Below are positions 1,458 to 36,125 of a stretch of DNA of 36,125 nt, in pieces. This DNA comes from Kipferlia bialata (lineage: Eukaryota), in the NCBI GenBank assembly GCA_003568945.1, contig BDIP01000051.1, forward strand, positions 1 to 36,125, in the 5' to 3' direction. Numbering within the stretch: the stretch's first letter is position 1; each line of letters starts with the position of its first letter. The notes beneath the pieces were generated by a model, which saw nothing but the letters and a program-made list of their open reading frames with translations, was not told where the DNA came from and made no database searches. The position numbers and the translations under genes were made by a program.

Positions 1458-3824
1458 ATGCTTGCCTCCCTCCGCTCCGTCCGCCCCTCCCTCTCTGCCC
1501 TGTCTGCATGCTTCAGCGTGTCCTTCTGTGACGACACGGAGCTGGCACACATGCTGGGGAGGTATGTATCATGTGGACACACATATCTGTATGTATAAAG
1601 GCAAATATAGGCATGGGACTGCCTATCACGTAATACTGGTTGTTTCCGGTGTGTTATAACTGTGTATAGCTATATTTTAGCTTTATCCCACCCCCTGTTG
1701 TGTGGGAGGTGATTGTTGAGTTGGCACAGTTTGATACCGGTACCGTCTGTTGACTTTGTGGATCTATCCATGTTTCACCCCCACACCTCTCTAGGTGTCT
1801 TCCTAGGGTTTTTTTATGTCTTGTAACTGTCGCAGCATTGACTCTTATCTGGTTTCGTGTCTCTTTGATCATCGTTGTCTACTGTTTCTCACTCGTCAAT
1901 CATATCACGTTTGTCATCTACTCAATCTCCTCCAATACACTATCACCCTGAGCATACTGTACCATATGCCTCTGTGTACGCTATATCCTTCTCATTGGTG
2001 CCCTCGTCAGACTTATCTCACCCCCATTATGTTGATGTGTCTGTTACCAGGTACCCCGACCACACTGCCTCTGCCATATTGAAATATATATATATGTGTA
2101 CATAGCAATACCATGTATATGCATACATATAGATACTGATACTGGTACTGATACCCAGGTACCCCGACCACACTGCCTCTGCCATATATGTATGTACACA
2201 CACATATTTGTATAGATATCATATACCATGTGTATAGATACATACTGATACTGATACCCAGGTACCCCGACCACACTGCCTCTGCCGTTGTGCCCCTCCT
2301 CCTGATGGCATCTGAGAGGTAGGATGGGTGTGTATATGTATATATATATATATATGTGTGTGTGTACATTGGTGGAGGGAACGGCTCATATTATCTCTTC
2401 GTCTGGTAGGTAGTGAGACAAGGATATAGAGATTATTACATTCTCTCTCTACAATGCACACCCACTCCCTTTACCTCTCTAACCCCTTACAGTGTCTGTC
2501 TCTGTGTATCTCTCTGCAATGCATACTCCTCCTCCTCACCCCAGGACCGGCATCACCGACGAGGTCATCGCTGAGATTGCCAGGGAGACCGGGTCCAAGG
2601 CATCAAAGTGAGTGGATACTATATACTGTATATAGTGTATAGTATATATAGTATATATATATATATATAGTATGTGTGATTGCCGAGATTGCCAGGGAGA
2701 CTGGGTCCAAGGCATCAAAGTGAGTATATTGGGTATATAGTGTATGTGGTGTAATATATTTTTATAGTATATATATATCATGTGTCATTGCTGAGATTGC
2801 CAGGGAGACTGGATCNNNNNNNNNNNNNNNNNNNNNNNNNNNNNNNNNNNNNNNNNNNNNNNNNNNNNNNNNNNNNNNNNNNNNNNNNNNNNNNNNNNNN
2901 NNNNNNNNNNNNNNNNNNNNATATTTATAGTATATATATATCATGTGTCATTGCTGAGATTGCCAGGGAGACTGGGTCCAAGGCATCAAAGTGAGTGTAG
3001 AGTGTATAGGGATTATCTTGGTGTCAATCCCGTCTGGTAGAGTCTCACCCCCAGGGTGTCTGCCGCCACCGACTTCTACCACATGCTCAACAGACACGCA
3101 CCCCCCAAGCACGACATCAAGGTAGGAATGGGCGGTGTCAGTAGTGAAATATTGTATTATCATTGCATAGGGAGTTTGTAATCCCAATAGCAACACTAAG
3201 GTGGGTAGTGTATATAGTGTATATAGTGTATTTGTATGCAGTCCCTCACTGCAGATCTGCACCTCCCCCTCCTGTGCCCTTGGTGGCTCTGAGGCCCTTC
3301 TGGCCGAGATCCAGGCCAAGGCCGACATCTGCAACGAGGGTATGCATACTGTTGTATATGTATATACTCATATGCTCTACCCCATCTCTTACTCCAGGCA
3401 TCCCCGAGGGTGATGCCCTGCTTGTGGGTATAGTATATATATATGTGCATACTATTGAATATGTATATACTCCTATGCTCTGCCCCATCTCTTACCCCAG
3501 GCATCCCCGAGGGCGATGCCCTGCTTGTGGGTGTGGGTGAGTGTGAGTGCCTGGGCGCATGCTGCTCTGCCCCTGCTGCCATGGGTGAGTGGGTGCACTA
3601 TATATACTATGATTCATATTTTTGTCTCTCTCTTTCTCTCTTTATATAGTCTAATCCTCAGTTGACGGCTGCATCCAGGACCACCTATCTCTCTCTCACA
3701 CACACACGTTCTCTCTCTCTCTCTCAATATATATATATATGTATTTTGACCCCCAGTTGATGGCTACATCAAGGACCACCTGTACATGGGGGACCTCGAC
3801 ACCATATTCGAGTCCTGCTGCTAA
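1458..3824 (+). CDS. nuoE: NADH dehydrogenase 24-kDa [2Fe-2S] subunit (NuoE/NDUFV2), probably targeted to a mitochondrion-related organelle; 7 exons, 175 aa
   Basis: Exons 1458-1561, 2262-2318, 2545-2607, 3055-3121, 3255-3339, 3501-3584, 3757-3824 join in phase: MLASLRSVRPSLSALSACFSVSF...RYPDHTASAVVPLLLMASER...VSAATDFYHMLN...ICTSPSCALGGSEALL...ECECLGACCSAPAAMVDG...CC*. The C-x4-C and C-x3-C (CLGAC) cluster ligands and the FY motif match the NuoE family. Confidence 0.93.
2048..2286 (+). repeat. Three copies of the NuoE intron-1 acceptor plus exon-2 start (two intronic echoes and the real exon)
   Basis: CAGGTACCCCGACCACACTGCCTCTGCC at 2048-2075, 2156-2183 and 2259-2286; only the last continues into the full exon. 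Confidence 0.95.
2564..2996 (+). repeat. NuoE exon-3 3' end plus donor, repeated at least three times inside intron 3
   Basis: GAGATTGCCAGGGAGAC[CT]GGGTCCAAGGCATCAAAGTGAGT at the real junction (to 2613) and at about 2680-2725, 2785-2815 (runs into the N gap) and 2947-2996. Confidence 0.95.
2816..2920. other. Assembly gap (N run) within a repeat array; a second small gap lies at 9021-9029
   Basis: Run of N in the sequence. Confidence 0.99.
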
Positions 3825-9198: not shown

Positions 9199-9553
9199 CA
9201 TGATCGACTTGGAGTCTATGATGCTGGAATATAATAGAATGTTCATTTGTTGTCAGTGGAGATGGGTGGGAAGCTTGAGGCTGAATAATACAATATGAAA
9301 CACATTACTTGAATAACATAGTGTGTGAGTACACATTCGTCTATTCACGCTATTCTATTGTAGTTTCAGATGATATCACACCGTCTCCACTTCTAAGGAG
9401 AGTGCATCGTTGCAGTGAGAGCAGTACTATACACATCTAAACATCGTCTAGCAACACTGAGTGTTAATCACTCTCTCTACATCTGCACCACCAGTGTCTG
9501 TATGCTGTTCATGGGCACAGTATCAGTGTCAGTATCATAGGTAGATACACTAT

Positions 9554-12500
9554 TTACATCTCAATGACAACAGTCTGTATGCTGTTCATGGGCACAGTGG
9601 TCTGGAACATGAATGTGTCGTTGACTGAGACGCGCATGACCCTGGGAGTCAGAGGGAACATATGAATGTATCTACATTCACATATATATATATATATATC
9701 CATCCCCCCTACCTGTCGTAGTTCTGTCTGTTCATCAGCACCATCTTGGCTGTGCCTGTCAAGGGGTCAACCACAGCCAGGGACTCGACATCGTCCTTCA
9801 TCTGACAGTCTACAGTGAGTCAAGGTGTGAACATATATATATAGAGTATATACAATGTATAGACTCAAGACTCATTTGTCATTGGGTAGGCAGCTAAGGT
9901 AAACTCTTCTAGACTAACAGCACAATAACATAGTATACAGCCGTATATCAACAGCAATAACAGAGAACACAGTGCCGTCGGTCATCTGGCAGATCCATCA
10001 ATTGAATGAAAATGCATATATGTATTCACCCCCATATGTCTTGAACACTCAGTCCCATATATGTATAAACTATGTAGTATATAGAAGTGAATTATAGTAC
10101 ACCCAAACCTGTTTTCAAGACCATGTCCCCCGGTCTCATGTGCTTGGAGAAGTGGCCCAGATAGTACAGGTTGGGTCTGGGGTCAGTGTCATGTAATGCA
10201 TATTATCATACACTTATATAGATAGTAGAAGTATGTATATAGAGAGGCCAGCCCGTGTAGTACAGGTTGGGTCTGGGGTAAGCATCATATTATGAATATT
10301 ATCATATACATACCATATAGTATATATATATAACAGTAGTAAACATAAAGAGAGGTATTACAGGTTGGGTCTTGGGGTAGATATCAATGTTTATCTCTCT
10401 ATCACTGTATACACATCCCCTTGCCTAGCCTCTATGTCTGTGTACAGCTCAAATATACAGATTGTAAGTATATACACACTGGTATGTGCATCTATCTACC
10501 TAGCCTCGATGTCTGTATACAGCTCATTGGCTATGATGGGGGCATCACACGAGTTGGCATTCTTGTTGGGGCCTGGGGTGAGTCTCTCTCGATATATAGA
10601 CACATACTATCACCACGCATTCCCAGTATCCCCCTCTGTAGTCCAGCATGTTCCAGATATATATATAGACTCCTCATAAACATATATATGTGTTGTATCA
10701 TATGTATGCTTGGAGGTACTATATATACACTATCCACCCACCCCCTGTGTAGTCCAGCAGCATGTTCCAGACATATGTATATACCCATTCAATATATAAT
10801 ATGCACATCTATATTGTCTATGTCTATATTTATACACTATAAACTATCCACCCACCCCCTGTGTAGTCTAGTAGCATGTTCCAGATGACCCAGGACTGGG
10901 CACCGCTCCTACAGGGTGAGGGTGAGGTACATCATGGTGATACATATGATATATATATATAAATTCACGATTTTACTATTCAGCATCCTGGGGGTGAGAT
11001 GTATATATGCCTATATATGTACATACATACCTATAGTGATATATATAAACCCTCACCTGATGTCCCAGAGTATGTCCCTGTATGTATCACTCTCTCTCAC
11101 CAGTCACATCCATTATCCATATATTCTGATATACACCCTACACTCTATACCTAATGTCCCACAGTATATCATGCCCCACGGCCTCTGCCCTACTCCACAG
11201 GGTGTCAGAGTCAGACGTGAAGGGGCAGGAGCAGGCCTGGGTAAGGTATGTGTATGTTGGTATCAAATGTATATATAACGAAGCAGAATATACATGAATG
11301 GGGATAAGGTGAAGGGACAGGAGCATGCATTTGTTGGGGGTATACGGAAACTTCTATATATACATAGTACATGTAGACCATATCTCGTTAATTAGCATCA
11401 GGGTGTCTTTGGCCACATATGTATATATAGAATTAATACATCTATATCTATCTATACCCATCCCTACCTCTGTCCCCATAAGCAGGGTGTCCTTGGGGTT
11501 CTCACTCCACCTGGCTGTCAGAAACGCGGTATGCAGTCATACTGTACCAACCATATTGTCTATGACATTTTGTATATATGTATATATATACTATAATGTT
11601 GTCATATATCCTACTATATATATGGTACTATCATACCTGATGGTCCATGCCACGCTGTTGACATCCTCAAACTCAGCATCAGTGGTCTGGGGTGAGTAAT
11701 GATAGAGGCATCAAACACACACACATGTATGGACATGGATACACTTCCTCACCTTGAGCCAATGATTATTATTATATATAGACTTCGTTCACATGTCTGT
11801 TCCGTACCTTGTACCAGTGGAATGCCACTCAAGCAGTACATGTTCATAAATACACATGTATATGTATATATATATATAGATACACAAATATATATATAAC
11901 TACATCCACCCACCTTGTACCAGTGGAATGCCACTCCGTCTGTATACATGAAGATATACATACATGTATCATGTCTATATACACTTGCTCTCTGTATGTA
12001 CACCCACCTTGTACCAGTGGAATGCCACTCCGTCTGTGTACTCACCAACACCTGGGGTGAGAAGAGAGAGTGGGCGTGTCGAGAGAGTGCTAATGGGACA
12101 TGGCAAATGCCGTGTGTATGTGACAGCAGTACCATTAGTGACAACACACCTGCCACACTGTGATATGCCTCAGTCCATCGCCAAACACACACATGTATAT
12201 GTACATATATATACCATACATATTTACATACCTGGCACACTGTAGTATGCCTCTGCCCACTGCAGGATGTCCTTCTTGTCATGGTCGAAGACAAGGACCT
12301 GGGGGTGAGGGGGATAGGTGTATATATAAATACACACACACACTGTGTATATACTATGTACTATGTATATAGTATGGGCATGGTGTATGATGTCCTTCTT
12401 GTCATGGTCAAAGACCTGGGATTAGTGGGAATGGTGTAAATGTATGAATTATTCCACATGGATGAGTACAATCCGGTCTATACACCAATGCCTCGATGGC

Positions 12501-12705
12501 TGTCAATATATATGTCTATCTAAGTATACCTTGATGTCTGTGCCGTTGTCCTCGTTGTAGGCCTGGATGGCAGGGCATGGGGTGAGAGGAGAGAGAAGTA
12601 TGTGTATGTATATATTATACATAATATACACATATTAGTATAATCAATATCATACATACATCTGTCTGGATGGCAGGGCATGGGGTGAGAGAGGTGTCTG
12701 GGTGC

Positions 12706-12757
<52 letters not shown>

Positions 12758-14623
12758 GTATACTATGAGAATACACACAATAGATATGTATGTATATACT
12801 ATACCATTCACACATCTGTATATATGGCAGGGCATGGAGTGAGACCAGGATGAATGAAAGGTATGTGATGTAATAACTGCCCATACCCAGGTGGTTGACC
12901 ACGAGTGATGCCATCTGGGAGACATGTGATATGTACATGTATACACATATATCTATATATTGTGATTCCCATCAAAGCATATATATACACATACACCGTA
13001 CCTAAGTGGTTGACCACGAATGATGCCATCTGGGATGCAGTGTAGGAGCAGCACTCCCACCTGGGGGTATGGAGGTGATATAAACACAAACACCTTACAA
13101 ATGGACATATTTAGGATTATGTGGTGGTCCATACCTGTGATCACCCCTCAGAGCTATATATAGTACATCGTATCTACGCCATGAGTATACCATACCTGTG
13201 AGTCCCCACCACCTCGTTCTCCACCGTGATGCCCCAGAGGTCAATCCCATGGGCAGCATATGCCTGAGGGGTCAGATGCTTCTATGTACATACATACATA
13301 TATATATATATACATATACACCCTCCCACCTCGAAGTACTTAGTGAAGTACTTGGCCCATGCTGCCAGGGTGCGGTCATCCCACTTGAGGCATGGGGTGA
13401 GGGGAGGGGGGTATATAGTATGTATATATACAAGAAATTGATGTAGACATGGGGTGACTTGGATATACAGAATAACAAGTAAATGTACGCACTATACATA
13501 TGTGTCAATCCATGAAGGTAGGGAAATGTGGGGATACACACACATACAGACATACCTGGTGTAGGGGAGGTCTCCATGGCTCCGTTGGACTGGGGGTGAG
13601 GGACCACGAAAGGGGGAGAAATATATGACTGTATGTAAATGTGTACCCATCTTCCTCCATGCGGGTGATATACTCAGGAATATGAATGCACCATATATGA
13701 CATATATATATGCACATATGTATGTGCATATACCTTCATCCAGGCCGGTGGTGACCATGGGCTGGCAAAGACAGAGAGGCCAGGGGTCAGGGCAAGGGCG
13801 TCCTGGGGTTATGGCTATTATGGATACATTGTACAGTATAGTGCACTGGCTACACTACATCCCCCCACCTGTATCATGGGTATCAGGTACTGTGTGTCGT
13901 GCTCCACACTGAAGTGGTCAAGGGCATAGTCACCCTGGGGGGTGAGATAGGGACACACTATATATACACATGTATATATGATATACTGATATGTATATAT
14001 ATATATATATACTAGAGTGGTCAAGGTCATAGTCACCCTGGGGTGAGGGGGGGACATAATATACATACACTATCTGTATGTATATACATACATAGTCATT
14101 CATGATACAGTCACCCCGGCTGAGGGAGAGAGAGACAGTGGAAAGTGTGTACACACTGCACCATACCTCCACGTCATCGTACGAGTAACTGCTGAGGCTG
14201 AGGTACACTACTATACATTTGACCACACACATATATATACACACTATGTATTACTACACTTGTACAATACCTCCGTGTCATCGTATGAGTAACTGCTGAG
14301 GCTGAAGTCACACGAGTTGATGTGGGTGCGGCACAGGGAGAAGCCCATGCCTGGGGGTGGGTGTATATATGCACACATTCACACACACATATACGTATGT
14401 ATATATATGTAGAAAGACAACGATAGTTATAGTTATCTATATTCGGCACAGCGAGAAGCCCATGCCTGGGGTGCGTACCCTTGTAAGCCATAGAGATAGT
14501 GGTGTCATTATCCTACTATAAAGCATAAATGCTACCACCCACCTTCCTCCTCATCGAAGAGTGTCCTCATGACCTTGGCCTGTGCAGAGGGGGGGAGCAT
14601 GGAGTAGACATAGGAGGCAGACT
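9554..14623 (-). CDS. Glycoside hydrolase family 30 glucosylceramidase-like protein; about 19 exons, 5' end not found
   Basis: GH30 motifs in order across in-phase exons: GMGFSLCRTHINSCDFS, ASPWSPPAWMK, LWGITVENE (acid/base), VLVFDHDK, DGVAFHWY, LLMGTEAC (nucleophile), WVIWNMLLDYTGGPN, DAPII, YYLGHFSK; ends NSIQTVVIEM* (TAA 9554-9556). Confidence 0.9.
12717..12753. repeat. (TA)n microsatellite, representative of many intronic (TA)n, (GA)n and (CA)n tracts
   Basis: Long TA run. Similar tracts occur in most introns, e.g. (CT)n 16524-16559 and (GA)n 33354-33387. Confidence 0.95.
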
Positions 14624-14653
14624 CTAGGGGTGAATGGAATGGTGTATATGTAT

Positions 14654-14685
<32 letters not shown>

Positions 14686-14832
14686 TAGACATAGGAGGCA
14701 GACTCTGGATGAGAGTAGAAACCATAGAGAGAGAAAGGGGGGGGGGGGGGGACAGAGGAGCACTGGGGGGGGGGGAGAGCCTGCGGATATAGTATTGGGT
14801 ATGGAAGGGTAACTGGCCTATGATCCAGTAAG

Positions 14833-14863
14833 CTGATACTGATACTGATACTGATACTGATAC
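14833..14863. repeat. (CTGATA)n hexamer microsatellite
   Basis: Five tandem CTGATA units. The same unit or its complement occurs at 2135-2154, 2245-2256 and 7851-7874. Confidence 0.9.
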
Positions 14864-15705
14864 AACAGGTATAATGGGCACAGAGTACAACGGCGGAAAT
14901 AGCGAATGGTGAAAGGAGAATGGGGAGGGGGGGGGGATACAACACATGCCCACTCAGTGAGTGGCTGGAACCACTGACTAACACATGAATATATGTCCAT
15001 ATGAATATATGTCTACACCCATATGTATATGTCAGCCATGCAATGCTATTAGCATGGCACATATACAAACAGTTGGCATAGACAGACAGATAGACTGAGG
15101 GATTGTTGCACACATGTGAGCATAGAAGAGTCACTCACTCAGACTCAACCACTGATACCAATGCACTGATGGATACTGACACCCTAAACACTGCTTGGTA
15201 GCAGTCGATATACTCATAAGCATACATATAGCGCCTATACTGAACGCAGTCCGCTAAGCACCACCAGACTATGCCTACTACCATGCATACCTGGTATATA
15301 CTTGCCAGTCTGGCATTAAGCTGGTCCAGATAGATCAGCATAGTCCCCTCTCCGCAGGTGCTGTCCTCAGACTATCCTGACGTACGGTCCCCTTACTCTA
15401 ACCTATTCCTCCCCCTATTCTCTGATTCACGCACTTACAGCTCACTGCCTGCTATCCACCTCCCCGCAGCCCACACACAGGTTAGCTTGACCGCTATAAA
15501 GCACTGTACCAGCCTAGTGGGGGGTGGGTTAAGTGGGTCTGTTTCTCAAGGCGCCTTTCAGCTTTCAAACACGTAAAAGGGTGCAGAGTAGTTTCTTCTG
15601 AACTAAGGGTTGATGTTCCTGGATCTGAATACGTGAATACACTCTATTCAACATTCAATAGAGTGAGTGAATTATACACTATCAACACAGCTTCTTGTGC
15701 CCTCC

Positions 15706-16519
15706 ATGTCACGTTATCGTGCCTGGCCACTTGTGTTGAGTGTGTTGCTGTGCCTAGCAGCCTGTCTTGGGTCCAAGTCTCCACTCAAGGCCAGCCTCAT
15801 TGGCCACAAGCACCATCTGGTCTCACTGTCCCCTGATAAGAGGTGTATATAGGTGTCCTCTCCCCTCCATTTCTGTATATATTTCTTGCCCCAAGCGTAA
15901 ACAATACCCTTTGAGTGAGCTGAATAGTGCTTGCACTTGTGCTCTCGTCTGTTCTCTATGATAGTCAGTGTCCACCGACTTCATTACACTGTCATTTATA
16001 CTATGGTTAGTTTACTATATTCCACTGCACTCTTACCCCAGCAAGAGACCATATGTGACCGACCTCCAGTATAGAGACTCCGTGTCAGTGCACCTCACAG
16101 ACATGGAGCCAAATGGAAGGTATGTAGATGTATTCATATGCATATGTGTATATGAGTATATATATATATGTATGTAGTTGGGTTACTGCTGTTGGAGTGC
16201 ACCTCACAGACATGGAGCCCAGTGGAAGGTATGTATGTATATATATATATATATGTATGTATATATATATATATGTATGTATATATATGAGTGTATATAT
16301 TTATATATCAGTTACGTCACTGGTGTTGTAGTGCACCTCACAGACATGGAGCCCAGTGGAAGGTGAGTATATACATGTGTTTGTGAGTGTATAATACCAT
16401 ACCTGTATAGGCGTTGGGTTACTGCACTTGTCAGTGGTGCTAGTGTTGAGGTATCTCACTCCCAGATATGAGCTAGTGTACTTCCCGACCCCAGAGTGCC
16501 AGGCCTCCCTGACACTGAG

Positions 16520-16562
<43 letters not shown>

Positions 16563-18622
16563 CCAGTAGTATCTCAGGCCTTCTTCATGCCAGTGAATCA
16601 GTGTATCAGTGTATCAGTGTGTTGTGTATCAGTGTATCAGTGTATCAGTGTATTAGTGTCTATATATATACATCATATCAGTGTATATGCCAGTGTAGTC
16701 CATTCCCACTCCGTATATTGATACTCTCACACCCTCCTCTCCCTAACTCTCTGCCACTCACATGCTCACCCATAGTCAATATGGATATTATCTAGTGTCA
16801 TTCTACATATTGACATGTACATATGTTGTGCAGTACCTTAGTCCTTATATGGAATGTAGCACCTTATACCTGTGCTTACAGTCAGGCTTGGCAGGGACTG
16901 CGACACAGACAGGGCAGGTATGAGTATTTATACATAGATATTTATGGATATTAGTATATATGTGTTTATATGTGTGTATGTATATATAGTATGTGTATAC
17001 ATAAAAATTAGGATATGAATATCTGTGATATTACTGTGACACGAACAGGGCAGGTATGTATGAGTATTGTGCGCGTATGTTTGTGATATAGTATATATGT
17101 ATGTATGGGCAAGGCACGTATGGTGGAGATACCCATACTAACCCATATTGTCATTTCTGTCTAGCCTTTGTCTGACCCCTTAGGTGTCTCTGTCACAGCT
17201 GACAGATTCCGTATAGTCACAGACAGTCAAGGGCATATCGAGAGGTATGCACATATATATGAATATTCAATAGGTCAGGGCATTCGCCATCTATAGTTCA
17301 GGATACATGCCTCACTATACACGTACTATACCTGGCATTCCCCTGTAGAGGCAGTCTATATATATATATAGATTGCTGAGCATTCACCCTAGAGTATCGG
17401 GTACTAGGGCCATGTGCACCGATGACACACTCACCCTGGAGGTAGACTCTAGGTATGCGGAGTATACACAGTATTTATAGTATGCATTGTTAAATCTACT
17501 ATGTTTACAGTGTCTGGGTCTTGTTCAGACTTCACTGTATGTATTTGTATACCCTGACCCCCCCATGTAAATGTAGCATAAGTATGTGTCTCTTGATCAC
17601 ATTTCACTATATATAAATTAACCTGTACCCTTCGTGTGGGACCCCTCCATGCCTCTGACCCCATGCTACCCATTGCGTGTACCCTCTATTGGGACCTCAA
17701 CACAATGGTGGGCGCTGTGCCAAAGGTGTGGGGTCATGTATATATATATATTATATGTATCATATTCAACAAGTTTATTGTGTGCAGTTTCCATTATGTA
17801 TTATCCTTGTGTTATTCCTTATCGTTGCATTAGATAGCTCTCTCTCTGCACTTTTTGGATCTCCTTCAACCCTTCCGATTACCTCAGCGTGTTGGACGCT
17901 CTCTCTCCCCCATGTGTGGGCTGATGGTACTTGTGGTAAAGGTGAGTGATGTCATACTGAAAGAGTATATGCTTGTTTCTTGCAAATCATCTATTCTGTG
18001 TGACATGTTTTGTCTCTAGAGTGGCTGATTCAGATTGTGCAGCGTGTACTAAAGGGAGCTCGCAACCCAGGGAACAGAAGAGACAGAGGCAAAGTGCCAG
18101 AGAGTGAGGAGCCCCAAAGCGTGGTATGATATGTGTCATCTAGCGATACCCTATTGTTCACCACATATAACATAATCTTATTCAAAGGATATATGGAAGA
18201 CTACGAATCGCAATGAAGCCCACGAGCATGCGAGGGAGAGACACACCTATGGGGGTGGACGGGCTAGTCCAGAGGAGGTGGATATGTGGAGAGAGAAGAG
18301 AGGGGGACAATGCCAATCGACAGCGGGTAGCACACACACTCCCCGTCCTACTCATAGTAATAGTAGCACGAGTGATAGTATGAGGGAAGGGCCACCTGGT
18401 GAGGAAGGGTCTGGTAGTGACGAAGTGTCTATGGCGGAGAGCGTCAGCGGGACCCCTTCCACAGACTGGACTCCAGAGGGTGACGCAGAGGGGAATGATG
18501 CTCTCCAGAGAGACTCCGCTGCAAGTAGTGGGACTCCCTCCTCTGATATGCCATATGGGATGGCACTAGAGGATGCAGACCCTGTGGCCGATACAACAAG
18601 TATGTACACGCATCCGTCGTAG
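15706..18622 (+). CDS. Hypothetical protein with an N-terminal signal peptide and a low-complexity Ser/Glu-rich C-terminus; middle exons uncertain
   Basis: MSRYRAWPLVLSVLLCLAACLG (signal-like), then in-phase exons SKRPYVTDLQYRDSVSVHLTDMEPNGR / YELVYFPTPECQASLTL / GVSVTADRFRIVTDSQGHIE / VSGTRAMCTDDTLTLE. The terminal ORF ends at 18622. Junctions at 17440-18020 are ambiguous and the C-terminal part could be a separate gene. Confidence 0.5.
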
Positions 18623-30776: not shown

Positions 30777-31246
30777 TTACTTGGAGGTGTTGGACTTGGC
30801 GGCAATCTGGCCGGCGGTCATGGAGCCCCAGCCACGAGCCTGGGACTTCACGGACCTCTGGGATCTGCGGCGCACAGTCACGATGGACTCCTTCTTGTGA
30901 AGCCTACGGCAAGCGAGGGTCCAGTCGATCTTACGGGGGTTCCACCTGGAGCTGAAGTGAACAGCGGTCTTGTGGTCCTTGAACATGAAGGGCTTTCCGT
31001 CTCCACGGACAAAGATGCTTCCGTAACCAGCCTGGATCTGACGTCCGGAGTAGGAGCAAGTATCACCAGTGCTGTGGGTGAGACTGAGCCGGCATAGAAG
31101 ACACAATAAATGAGTCAAAGCACATAAGAATGCCACAGAACCACCAAACACCAACGAGAGGCCTCACACCGCTCTAACAACGCAGCATCCCAGCTCCCTA
31201 ACTCCATATCAGCATCCCCTAGCTATCTACACACGTACCGGACCAT
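30777..31246 (-). CDS. RPL24: 60S ribosomal protein L24 (eL24), 100 aa, 2 exons
   Basis: Exon 1 31239-31246 (ATGGTCCG|gtacgt) and exon 2 30777-31071: MVRTGDTCSYSGRQIQAGYGSIFVRGDGKPFMF...WNPRKIDWTLACRRLHKK. The CSYSG and NPRKIxWT motifs fit eL24; the four-Cys pattern of Rlp24 is absent. Confidence 0.93.
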
Positions 31247-31677: not shown

Positions 31678-31932
31678 TGTTTATTTAATGGTTCGTGGTT
31701 TCAGTTGTTGGGGGCAATGGAAGAGAATGGGACCAAGATCAATGGGGTGGTCTACTTTCAGGTATTCCTCTTATTCAACTCTTCTTTCGGAGCCACTGCT
31801 TACAAGTAGCATTCCACAAGTACATAACAAATTTACTAATTGGGTATTCTACGGCAACAGGATATGTATCACCAACGGAAGTGATATACACCCACTTGCT
31901 CTTCCTCCGCACTGACATGGTACACTCTAATA

Positions 31933-33349
31933 TTACTGCACCTCTAGCACTCCATCACTGCCAATGAGCACAGTGAAGTCTCCCCCTAGGCCCTTCTCTG
32001 AAAGGAATGGTTGCACTGCATACAGGGTCTCGGGGAGGAATGTGCCCTGAGTCAGTGGGCTCATAAAAACTACGCTATGCATGAAACACAGATACAAACA
32101 CACCTCCACTCCAGTGCTCTGGCCCTCGGTGAACAGGGCACTGTCGAATATGACGTCAGCGAGTGTCTTCTTGAACAGCCGGAATCCAGCGCCAACATCC
32201 AACTCAGACTGCGAGTTAGAGACACAGAGGTATGAAACTCCACCCACTGTATATGATATAGACACCCCACCTCCAGTGTGGCCTGGGTCTCGACAACCTC
32301 TCCATCCTCGCCCTTGACCACCTGGGATGAGGGACAGACAACAAATGACAACACTGGATGATCATCAGGCACCCTGACACACGGAAATGATTATAGAAAA
32401 GAATATTTGATACCTGCTCTGGGAGTGGGTCTGGATATGGGTGCACGACGAGTGTCCCTCTGGATGGCTGTGTCTCAGTCTCATTCAGCTGGAACACAAT
32501 GACTGGGTTCTGTCCAGCACCCATGCTACAGTGAGATAGGGAGAAGGGGACACAGTATATAACTACTACGCTCCACTGCCACTCACCCCTTGGGTCCTCC
32601 GCTGTTCTGAAGGGTCCACCTGCCAGGGATCTGAGGGTGAGGGGTAGTCTCAGAATGACAACACAGGATGGTGATATAATGCAACATATATAGTCCATAA
32701 TGCAAAGAGGAGCTGCTAACATGGACGTTGTCTCTCAGCCAGTGAGGCATATATATATATATACATGCATATATATATGTACTGATATGGTACCTGTATG
32801 AGGTGTCTGTGCTGGGTGGGCAGGTGCACCACACACGCACTGGTGAAGAGGGAGGGGAGGGAGGAAACGGGTACTGAGTGTGAGTATCGGTGGGAGCACG
32901 GGATGGACAGGGTAAATATGTATATATATACATATACATAAACATATACAGAATAGAATGGTCATATGCACGCACCAATGTGGATCTGCCCCCCTCCGGC
33001 CTTGCCGGTGTGGGTGACCCTGGACTCGAGAGCTGCCACATTGCCTGGTACACTCCAGATGTCATCAGACCAGTTGTAGGGGCCTGGGGGTGAGTGCCCA
33101 GGGTGGCCATCAATAAGCATTAGTATCAGTATCTATAAGTGTCAGTGTCAGCAGTGAGTGGCCCCCACCTGTGTACCCCTCCTCTGCGTTCACCATGGAG
33201 ATGACCACAAAGTGCTCGAGGGAGGAGGGGGCGGGGAGGGCATCTGTGGAGAACATGTCTGGCTCGCCCCCATCTACAGGCTGGACAATGGGAATACGCA
33301 CAACCTGACCGTCAATACACAGTGGTAAGCACATCACATCTCTGTATGT

Positions 33350-33391
<42 letters not shown>

Positions 33392-36060
33392 ACCCACCTT
33401 GAGCACTGAGTAGAAGGCTGAGGGGGTCAGGGCAGTCTGGGACTCGGCTGGGCCTAGGGTCAGAGGGACAATACCATACACACACCCAAGACTGTGACAG
33501 AGTATATCAAGACAGTACCGGTGCATACAATATACCTATCTACATAATGTCCACATCCATACATACCTGACAGGAGGCATGCGACCTTGGTGGCCTTGCG
33601 GGCATTGGTCTCAGTCAGCAGCTTGAGGGAGTCATATAGACCCGCAGCGCCCCTGGGATGAGAGGTGGGTACAGATATATATATATGAATGTGACGCATT
33701 TTGTGAACTAAGGTACACATCAGTATATACCCACCTACGGAGCAGCTTGGGTGCCTCAGCGATGAACCCTGCAAAGAGAAGGGACACACACTGGTCGAGG
33801 GTCAGGGAGTGGGCCAGCTCATAGGAACCAGCCACCTGACAGGTTAGGAGACAGAGGGCTGCGTATACCTAGGTACCGATAGAGAGTCAGTGACACAAGG
33901 CCATAGTGGTTGTGTCACCTTAGCCACTGCCTTCTCCAGCAGGGGTATGAGGTACATGTGCCTGTCTGCACGGCTGAAGAGAGGCCGGTATGTCTCGTTG
34001 ACAGGGAGGTAGTCATCCACACACACGCTCTGCCAGGAGCCGTTGAGGAAGAATCTGAGGTGAGAAGGATAGATGCACCACTAGCATTGAGTATGGTCCC
34101 AACACCCACCCACATATATATACAAATTAATATGACAACACTACTCACTTGAAGGTGTGGATGCCGAGTTGAACGCTGGACAGCTCCCGCTGGTAGAGGT
34201 TCTCTGGGATAAGAAGGCTATCCATATATACTTGTGTATGTGCACTAGTAGTATAGAAATCTGCAAAACACATATACTCAGTATCAGTACTGTGAAACAG
34301 AGAGAGAGAGAGAGAGAGAGAGACTCACCCAGGAGACCAGGGCACATGTGGACAGTAGAGCACATGGCCTGAAGTGAGACAACACAGAGAGAGAGAATGG
34401 CATTGGTGAGAGAATACACAGGGTAGACATATACATAGATATGGACATACATGGATATTCACAGATACATACCTGCAGAAGCCCTGTTCTGTGGTCTGAC
34501 CGGAATGACAAGAGGTCTCCCTTCTGACATGAGAGAGAGAGAGACTGTCAGCCAGTATCAGAAAGGTCTGCATAGATATATATATATCGCTGACAGTGTC
34601 ACTATGGCAACACGGCAATGTTGCGAATGTCTGCCCATACCTCTGGCATGACGCATGCCTTCTTGTCCAGCTTGGTGATACGACGCCACCAGAAACACTG
34701 GGGGTGAGGGGCAGTATATCACTACAGCACTACTCCACTATCAGGGCTGAGCAGATACATATATATATACATATACATATATATATACCCTCACAGCAGT
34801 TGGACTGACCTGGTCATATGCGGGGAAGGAGGGTGTCCCAACGGACTCCAGCTGCAGTGGGAACTCACCATCCACCAGCCTGTTCTTGCCCTGAGGGTGA
34901 GTGAATACATATATACATATATGTATGCACTGAATGCGTGGGTGGGGGGTTGTTGTGGGGGGGGGGGGGGGGGGGGGGGGATACATATACACAAGAGTGA
35001 TGCACCACTGTCTCGTACCTGCTCCTGGCTGCGGGGCCTCTCACCAGGGTGGGTCCCTTACCCACAAGGGCTGTGTTGTCTGGTGGTTAGAGAGAACTCA
35101 TCCTACATATGCATACAGTACAGGGTATGTTCTAGTCCACAAATAGATGCACACTCAACCCCACCCTGTGTGTCTGTGAGGCTGTCCCCTAGGACACCCC
35201 CGAAGTCAGCCCTGGCCCTGTTGTACAGCGCAACCAGAACGGTGAGGGCAGCATTACTGGGAGGTGAGACAGAGAGGAGAGAGAGAGAGAGAGAAAGAGA
35301 GACATGCACTCCCAACCCTACCGCCACTCCTACCTTGTCTGCTCCTGGGCCATGTCACCCGACACAGAGGGGGTCTGGGGTGAGGGGGGGGGGTGATAGT
35401 AATAGTATGCGTGTATATACACACAGCTGTGTCCCCACCTGCGCCAGGCACATGGGCATAGAGAGTGCATGATACAGGGGGTGGAGGGGGTGGGTGGTGT
35501 CAAGGTGGGACTCCAGGGTGGTGGTGGTGGACCTAGGGTGAGAGAGAGTCACTGGAATATGTATAGAGAGTAGTGCCTGATACCTGGCCCTTCCGAACCC
35601 CCCCCCTGTCTGACACGACTCCTCCAGCACTGTCCTCAACAGCTCATAGTCCACAGCCCCTGCATCCTCAGTCAGCAGAGTGCTGAGCACAGTGTACAGA
35701 CCACCTGCCCCAGCAGCCCCCTGCTGCCTACCCCTAGTGGGGCCTGAGGGGGGTAGGCCATGGCCAGCCTCCCCGTCCCCGTCCCCCCCCTCCACCTGCA
35801 GCATGGCCCTGGCCACATGGGCCATCCCATACAGAGACACGAGGGCATGCAGGAGGGCATGGGCAGACAGGACATCGGGGGCAGGGCGCACACTCCCGTC
35901 CCCACTCTCCAGCCATGTCTGGAAGCAGGACTCATAGTACACATCCCCCTGGGGGGTGTCTGGGTGGGGTGTTGCCTCGTTGCACCCCAGCATGCACTGC
36001 ACAGCCAGGCACAGGTCGCAGTCTAGGTCGGAGCCCCCACTCCTCTGGCCACTCCGTTGC
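31933..36060 (-). CDS. Calpain-like protein (CysPc plus domain III), catalytically degenerate; 5' end beyond the window
   Basis: Exons give LVDGEFP, WRRI, GIHTFKFFLNGSWQSVCVDDYLP, LLEKAVAKVAGSYE, FYSVL, WSDDIW, then domain III IPGRWTLQNSGG..QNP and YAVQPF..GGDFTVLI; TAA at 31933-31935. One junction near 35020-35080 has an unresolved phase. Confidence 0.85.
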
Positions 36061-36125
36061 CTGGGACTCAGAGAGAGGGAGGAGGGGGGGGGGGGGGGGG
36101 AAAGAGAGAGAGAGACGCGGACACT

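Follow-up and report, generated by a model that had tools for sequence, protein, structure and literature searches.

RNA places the 3′ end of one intron of a Kipferlia bialata gene at AT instead of AG, a reading in which we have high confidence. A second intron of this gene very probably ends in AT too, as judged by homology, and a neighbouring gene holds a third candidate. All three lie in one window, the whole stretch of 36,125 nt that was analysed.

K. bialata is a free-living fornicate and likely diploid, and its AUGUSTUS annotation has 124,912 introns, counted as GU-AG (as given in PMC5874029). A peptide of the window was a 100% match to P0001 (GIQ79754.1, g449.t1), a K. bialata protein named glycoside hydrolase family 30. 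P0001 has a PF02055 domain and matches human glucosylceramidase (E 1.6e-58), with which its ENE and TEAC motifs, presumably those of the catalytic Glu residues, align. By domain, homology and motifs, the host gene is a GH30 glucosylceramidase-like gene, coding for a sugar-lipid hydrolase.

9332–14622, minus strand: GH30 glucosylceramidase-like gene; P0001, the exon table, RNA contig pieces (9332–12920) and human homology place 19 exons and 18 introns.

All 18 introns, between exons from 14622 to 9554 on the minus strand, start with GT; 16 end in AG and two in AT. The start of P0001 is an internal Met (14600), and exon 14543–14622 (minus strand) likely begins near 14622. The Dysnectes brevis orthologue P0015 was the top match to the gene. 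Next among the named best matches were bacterial GH30 proteins (Planctomycetota, Bacteroidota) at ~40% identity; judged by these matches, the fornicate gene could be of bacterial origin.

The intron with RNA evidence, its surroundings and the internal copies ("echoes") of its ends are as follows.

12577–13001, minus strand: GT-AT intron, 425 nt, phase 1 (RNA joint 12576/13002; first of 156 in-frame options).
12530–12576, minus strand: exon after this AT acceptor, G-PAIQ...DIK, fully covered by the RNA contig.
12577–12586, minus strand: branch motif CTCAC fused to the CAT acceptor, predicted from sequence, with branch A at 12583 (−7).
12666–12691, minus strand: echo of the acceptor, 26 nt identical, AT (12680–12681) included; absent from the RNA contig.
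12824–12843, minus strand: second echo of the acceptor, 19 of 20 nt, AT (12834–12835) included.
12885–12920, minus strand: echo of the donor with the preceding exon end, ending CTGG where the true exon has TTAG (sequence and RNA comparison).

From 13001 to 12577 the intron reads GTACGGT...CTCACCCCAT, followed by exonic GCCCTG. Two sequencing runs cover the stretch: X1, a DNA run and possibly the window's own source, and X2, treated as RNA because its contig skips introns that X1 retains. The X2 comparison spanned window positions 9300–12926 and used assembled contigs of one sample, in which minor isoforms and collapsed alleles are therefore invisible. X2 gave one contig of 1682 nt (depth 98.9) with 10 listed joints over that span, nine of which have GT-AG ends. 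At the tenth joint the contig departs from the genome at 12576, without any ambiguous letter, and resumes at the true upstream exon end, 13002. The four X2 letters past 12576 equal those at 13002–13005 and differ from those of the intronic echo at 12887–12890. As the joint letters match the true exon, the 425-nt intron was removed between TTAG and GCCC. A parse in which both ends are shifted by 1 nt, giving TA...TG, fits the same RNA and needs two non-canonical ends; it was dropped on parsimony.

The sequence-only reading had placed a phase-1 GT-AT intron here and pointed to RNA across 12576/13002 as its check. Its coordinates and letters were right, and X2 joins 13002 to 12576 exactly, at the AT. 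It had also named an untranscribed or pseudogenic locus as what would overturn the claim; the GH30 locus is transcribed and spliced, as the X2 contig with its 10 joints shows. About 226 nt at the 5′ end of this contig, an N-terminal GH30 segment, could be located in the window neither with tblastn nor with a motif regex or an N-terminal profile (best E 0.31); the segment has perhaps diverged or is on a different scaffold. We do not take this to indicate a pseudogene: the contig is close to full length, and the reading frame is open where it was located. Since the segment is unplaced, the scaffold is possibly misjoined at poly-C/CT runs (14650–14950).

The AT might belong to one haplotype or one assembly, with the spliced RNA coming from an unseen AG allele or copy. 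Such a situation is conceivable in a species reported as likely diploid (so described in PMC5874029), the more so as contigs collapse single-base bubbles and X1 may be the window's own source, which would make it a second assembly and not a second sample. The DNA and RNA argue the other way. The X1 contig covers 12008–12698 with 0 differences and the same AT (depth 399, beside 467), X2 had zero listed letter differences from the window, and no other letters occur among the pieces listed for either run. None of the 10 RNA joints was present in X1. A dead haplotype with two of 18 acceptors hit should presumably differ in its exons also. Further, the echoes carry AT too, and the same context is read with AG elsewhere. 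This last point, CTCACCCC-AG-GCCC read as AG at 10573, rules out a context-driven sequencing error. We regard a hidden AG allele as very improbable. Editing of U to G in the RNA would be another way to an AG, and we know of no precedent for it.

Splice options at both GH30 sites were ranked by homology. Pairing GT/GC donors with AG/AT acceptors gave 336 pairs for the intron at 13392–13555 and 2283 for that at 12577–13001. Of these, 97 and 156 were in frame and free of stops, 27 and 30 of them with AG. Scores came from a profile of 125 of 131 homologues and from pairwise alignment with P0015. The AT forms topped both sets, by profile (428.6 bits) and against P0015 (raw 854). The best AG options reached 426.2 bits and raw 847 at 13392–13555, and 427.8 bits and raw 850 at 12577–13001. 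Homology scores alone are weak, because the profile margin at the RNA-confirmed intron was just 0.8 bits. At the junction of that intron, LG is followed by P in 103 of 103 matched homologues (28 of the 131 were unmatched).

The public model P0001 skirts both ATs with GT-AG substitutes. At 12577–13001 it uses a donor at +5 and an AG at +14, in frame, and reads NHLG-T-AYNE; this junction is contradicted by the RNA and is wrong. At 13392–13555 it uses an AG 30 nt downstream, in frame, reads TSPTP-A-WAKY and drops 10 aa; this junction is likely wrong too. The sequence-only reading had listed in-frame AG alternatives, and that list was incomplete. At 12577–13001 it lacked the +5/+14 pair chosen by the public model, and at 13392–13555 the +30-nt AG and a GT-AG pair shifted by 8 nt.

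13392–13555, minus strand: GT-AT intron, 164 nt, phase 1 (homology: first of 97 in-frame options, with a gap-free PGLK alignment).
13392–13401, minus strand: branch motif CTCAC fused to the CAT acceptor, predicted from sequence, with branch A at 13398 (−7).
13330–13391, minus strand: exon after this AT acceptor, G-LKWDD...YFE (exon parse and homology).
13448–13457, minus strand: weak echo or decoy of ~10 nt with AT (13449–13450), inside this intron.

From 13555 to 13392 this intron reads GTATGTC...CTCACCCCAT, then exonic GCCTCA; coordinates, letters and phase 1 had been given correctly from the sequence. With the AT form, PGLKWDDRTLAAW of Kipferlia matches PGLKQDARHQAAW of Dysnectes without gaps. 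The spacer between MK and W is 22 aa long in both, compared with 12 aa in the public model and 18 aa in 124 of 127 matched homologues. A second homologue, P0006, has PGL at the same place, so that both homologues with a true 22-aa spacer carry P-G-L where the AT form has P-G-L-K.

It could be that only 12577–13001 ends in AT and that this other intron is a canonical GT-AG intron, either displaced by 8 nt, with its donor following 13548 and its AAG preceding 13383 (giving PGMSW), or ending 30 nt downstream at the AG of the public model. Each option preserves the frame and has no stop, and the shifted pair keeps the intron length, has a GTATGT donor and trails the AT form by a small margin (2.4 bits by profile, 7 raw points pairwise). 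Against the two options stand the P-G-L of both 22-aa-spacer homologues, an 8.8-bit lower score for the 10-aa deletion, and AGs that lie 15 and 37 nt from the predicted branch A, outside the 6–9 nt of 17 of the 18 introns. Moreover, at 12577–13001, where the public model resorts to a rescue of this kind too, the RNA contradicts it. A canonical end at this intron thus appears improbable, and the preferred reading is use of the AT at 13392.

The third candidate lies in a neighbouring hypothetical gene on the other strand.

17453–17664, plus strand: candidate GT-AT intron, the third, 212 nt long and predicted from sequence only, with branch motif CTGAC at −7.
17665–17725, plus strand: exon after the candidate AT acceptor, open, 61 nt, in phase with two upstream GT-AG exons (from sequence).

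The candidate intron ends in CTGACCCCAT, with the predicted branch A at −7. Among 521 donor–acceptor pairs tried, 35 options were open and in frame, and none of these 35 used an AG. The public model KIPB_000451 starts at 17705, an ATG inside exon 17665–17725. Because it begins inside the exon after the AT, exons 16042–17452 and KIPB_000451 are likely one gene split by annotation. Judged from these sequence features, the third intron is likely spliced at its AT. GC follows all three AT sites, compared with five of 32 AG sites, a post hoc count on three cases.

The predicted branch A (in CTCAC, CTGAC and variants) lies 6, 7, 8 or 9 nt from the intron end in 1, 8, 5 and 3 of the 18 GH30 introns, respectively, with one intron left unassigned; it is thus 6–9 nt before the end in 17 of 18 and, in both AT introns, at the modal 7 nt. 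At 11511–11520 (minus strand), an AG 3 nt past the branch A (CTGACAG) is skipped for a CAG at 8 nt, and the RNA joint fits the latter, which is consistent with a minimum spacing. Across both strands of the window, the motif followed by three to six C and AN occurred 43 times, with AG in 32, AT in 9 and AC and AA in one each. In 200 shuffles the AT count had a mean of 1.8 and a maximum of 7, versus the 9 observed. Four of the nine AT matches are GH30 sites and echoes, and the remaining five alone are inside the shuffle range. On visual inspection, only one of these five, 17655, resembles a genuine acceptor; we took 2017, 7048, 17554 and 10025, the last of which is antisense to a GH30 intron, to lie within introns and rejected them. 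Elsewhere in the window, 31900–36125 (minus strand) holds what we take by eye to be a calpain-like multi-exon gene and 30780–31070 (minus strand) a short ribosomal-protein-L24-like gene; the acceptors seen in both regions end in AG.

The sequence-only reading had held that 3′ splice sites are set by distance from the branch point and tolerate non-AG ends, and had noted that intronic echoes carry AT as well. Use of the AT at 12577 in RNA and the spacing of 6–9 nt in 17 of 18 introns agree with the first view in part; the non-AG candidates in the window are AT only, and distance is not the whole rule. The echo at 12680 shares all 26 nt with the acceptor, among them the branch motif, yet is unused in the RNA contig, which means that spacing is not sufficient. 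The extra cue that chooses among equal sites is likely exon definition. As for the echoes, all three AT positions (12680–12681, 12834–12835 and 13449–13450) were right, and the third shares only ~10 nt and is maybe a chance look-alike. Introns rich in short echoes of neighbouring exon ends with splice sites were also seen at 9300–14800 (minus strand) and at 2050–2300, 2680–3000 and 16190–16365 (plus strand). Some echoes, e.g. 14047–14038, have a perfect branch motif and an AG and are unused by the gene model.

The AT introns work like U2-type introns, as non-canonical ones. Their donors, GTATGTC and GTACGGT, follow exonic AG and are of the GTA type, like those of the gene's other introns. The predicted branch motif is CTCAC, and its A lies at −7, as it most often does in this gene (8 of 18 introns). 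In place of a YAG acceptor there is CAT in the DNA, and for 12577 the RNA junction is found there. Precise removal is seen for 12577–13001 only and inferred for 13392–13555. The short, near-fixed spacing typical of a metamonad branch point fused to the 3′ splice site is likewise present, with 6–9 nt in 17 of 18 introns.

Membership of the U12 type or of a mobile family of GT-AT introners was weighed as well. GT-AT ends account for seven of 66 non-canonical U12 introns in PMC1557818, and Giardia snRNAs have been described as U2/U12 hybrids. The donors and CTCAC do not match the minor-type consensus, RTATCCTTT with branch TCCTTAAC (as stated in PMC8199999), and none of the eight U11/U12 proteins is scored in Kipferlia (supplement 10 of PMC6679479). 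The three AT introns are unlike in length (164, 425 and 212 nt), and their pairwise similarity scores of 21–29 lie at background, compared with 17–36 for 28 AG-AG pairs. Target duplication was not seen in their 10-nt flanks. End-to-end inverted-repeat scores were 14, 27 and 8, versus 6–16 in eight AG introns, the 27 coming from low-complexity TA/GT sequence. It belongs to intron 12577–13001, whose 5′ end is complementary to the region just before the branch motif (GTAT/ATAC repeats); this pairing may shorten the intron or be chance. Both readings are largely refuted and are hardly credible.

We consider it probable that these are ordinary-looking spliceosomal introns ending in U instead of G, with the end set by a branch-anchored position, a weak check of the last base and the loss of factors. 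The branch point would sit fixed 6–9 nt before the intron end, and its position would fix the cut. U2 would pair with CUCAC, and branching would occur at A(−7). In yeast structures, the acceptor docks with C at −3 and with A at −2 beside the branch A; the C and A of CAU would dock as in CAG. The contact of U(−1) with intron G(+1) would be weaker, and the last base is probably checked weakly. Such a weak −1 state is rejected in yeast by Prp18 and Prp22; animals have an earlier screen for AG, by U2AF35. With Prp22, U2AF35 and SF1 undetected in Kipferlia, replacement of G by T at −1 would carry almost no cost and could become fixed by drift. AGs 8–30 nt downstream would be passed over because they fall outside the spacing window.

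In supplement 10 of PMC6679479, a table in PDF form with columns assigned from the page layout, K. bialata has a score of 0 for U2AF35, SF1, Prp22 and all eight U11/U12 proteins, and 1 for Prp8, U2AF65, Prp16, Prp17, Prp18 and Slu7. The absences come from a draft proteome with faulty models and are soft. That Prp18, Slu7 and U2AF65 are scored as present is a point against a mechanism based on lost proofreading. The same paper reports that no snRNA candidates were found in K. bialata, and cites work on Trichomonas in which moving the branch point by 2 or 7 nt abolished splicing. In yeast without Prp18, the non-G sites used best are CAU and UAU; CAU is used more in the prp22-G810A mutant, and where the branch point is close to the acceptor, neither Prp18 nor Slu7 is needed (results given in PMC10711555).

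Use of the AT could also be real and a local, leaky tolerance open to any spliceosome, unrelated to lost factors, with the two GH30 sites perhaps of one origin through local gene conversion. A U2-type GT-AT intron is conserved in DGCR2 of human and mouse (reported in PMC1557818), the two GH30 acceptors share 13 nt at a distance of 815 nt in a gene rich in local echoes, and Prp18 and Slu7 are scored as present (PMC6679479). On the other side, the third candidate is in an unrelated gene within 5 kb, and the AT junction is the path that the assembler kept. Two of 18 introns is far above the 0.26–0.58% of "other" ends given for animals, fungi and plants in PMC7072748, whose text holds no GT-AT string, with the reservation that the window was chosen for this feature. 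We judge local leakiness unlikely, and branch-anchored positioning with a weak last-base check is kept as the preferred explanation.

Among known systems, yeast without Prp18 or with prp22-G810A is similar in its CAU end, its major-type donor and the short 7-nt branch distances that are activated there too (PMC10711555). Unlike in Kipferlia, the yeast sites are alternative ones that mutation brings into use and poly(U) assists; the Kipferlia CAU occurs in wild-type RNA, with a C-rich spacer and no AG at proper spacing. Fornicate and parabasalid introns fuse the branch point and the acceptor at near-fixed spacing (as described in PMC6679479). Giardia, Spironucleus and Trichomonas, of the same clade, share with Kipferlia the branch motif directly before the acceptor, this spacing and a reduced spliceosome, but their introns end in CAG or TAG and are few, whereas Kipferlia has ~125,000 introns and AT ends (PMC6679479). 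A Giardia candidate, DinF (row 36 of Table 1 in PMC10711314), is likewise a GT-AT intron of the major type in a fornicate host. It is spliced in 1.3% of reads ("rarely"), whereas removal of the Kipferlia intron is needed for the protein and is the assembled form.

The U2-type intron of human and mouse DGCR2 and the U12-type GT-AT introns have the same terminal dinucleotides and are functionally spliced; they differ in being single or few per genome and, for the U12 ones, in having the U12 donor and branch consensus (PMC1557818). Fritillaria borealis resembles Kipferlia in lineage-specific non-AG ends linked to U2AF, but there 95% of introns are non-canonical and are read by duplicated U2AF paralogues, while Kipferlia introns are mostly GT-AG and U2AF35 is undetected (PMC13326754). 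A literature search that left subscription journals aside found no report on non-AG acceptors in Kipferlia. GT-AT ends are known rarities elsewhere, and their apparently routine use in the Kipferlia lineage was not found in print.

A broader reading is that CAU, before exonic GC, forms a second regular acceptor class with hundreds to thousands of members among the ~125,000 introns, owing to lost Prp22 proofreading and lost U2AF35. We put this forward tentatively, as a possibility that is somewhat more doubtful than not. If true, the species would amount to a naturally occurring mutant in 3′ splice-site fidelity with a wealth of introns, concealed because its annotation admits only GT-AG. For annotation, the GH30 model is wrong at one junction, as the RNA shows, and likely at another; at the third site, annotation seems to have cut the neighbouring gene in two. 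The Kipferlia proteome serves as the reference free-living fornicate in comparisons of gene loss, including the spliceosome table of PMC6679479. Enforcement of the final G has been studied mostly in yeast mutants. If the reading given here is true, a wild, intron-rich CAU splicer without detected AG enforcers would allow public RNA data from tens of thousands of natural introns to be used to test the proofreading model. Taken as they stand, the results suggest that the splicing machinery of Kipferlia picks intron ends mainly by position.
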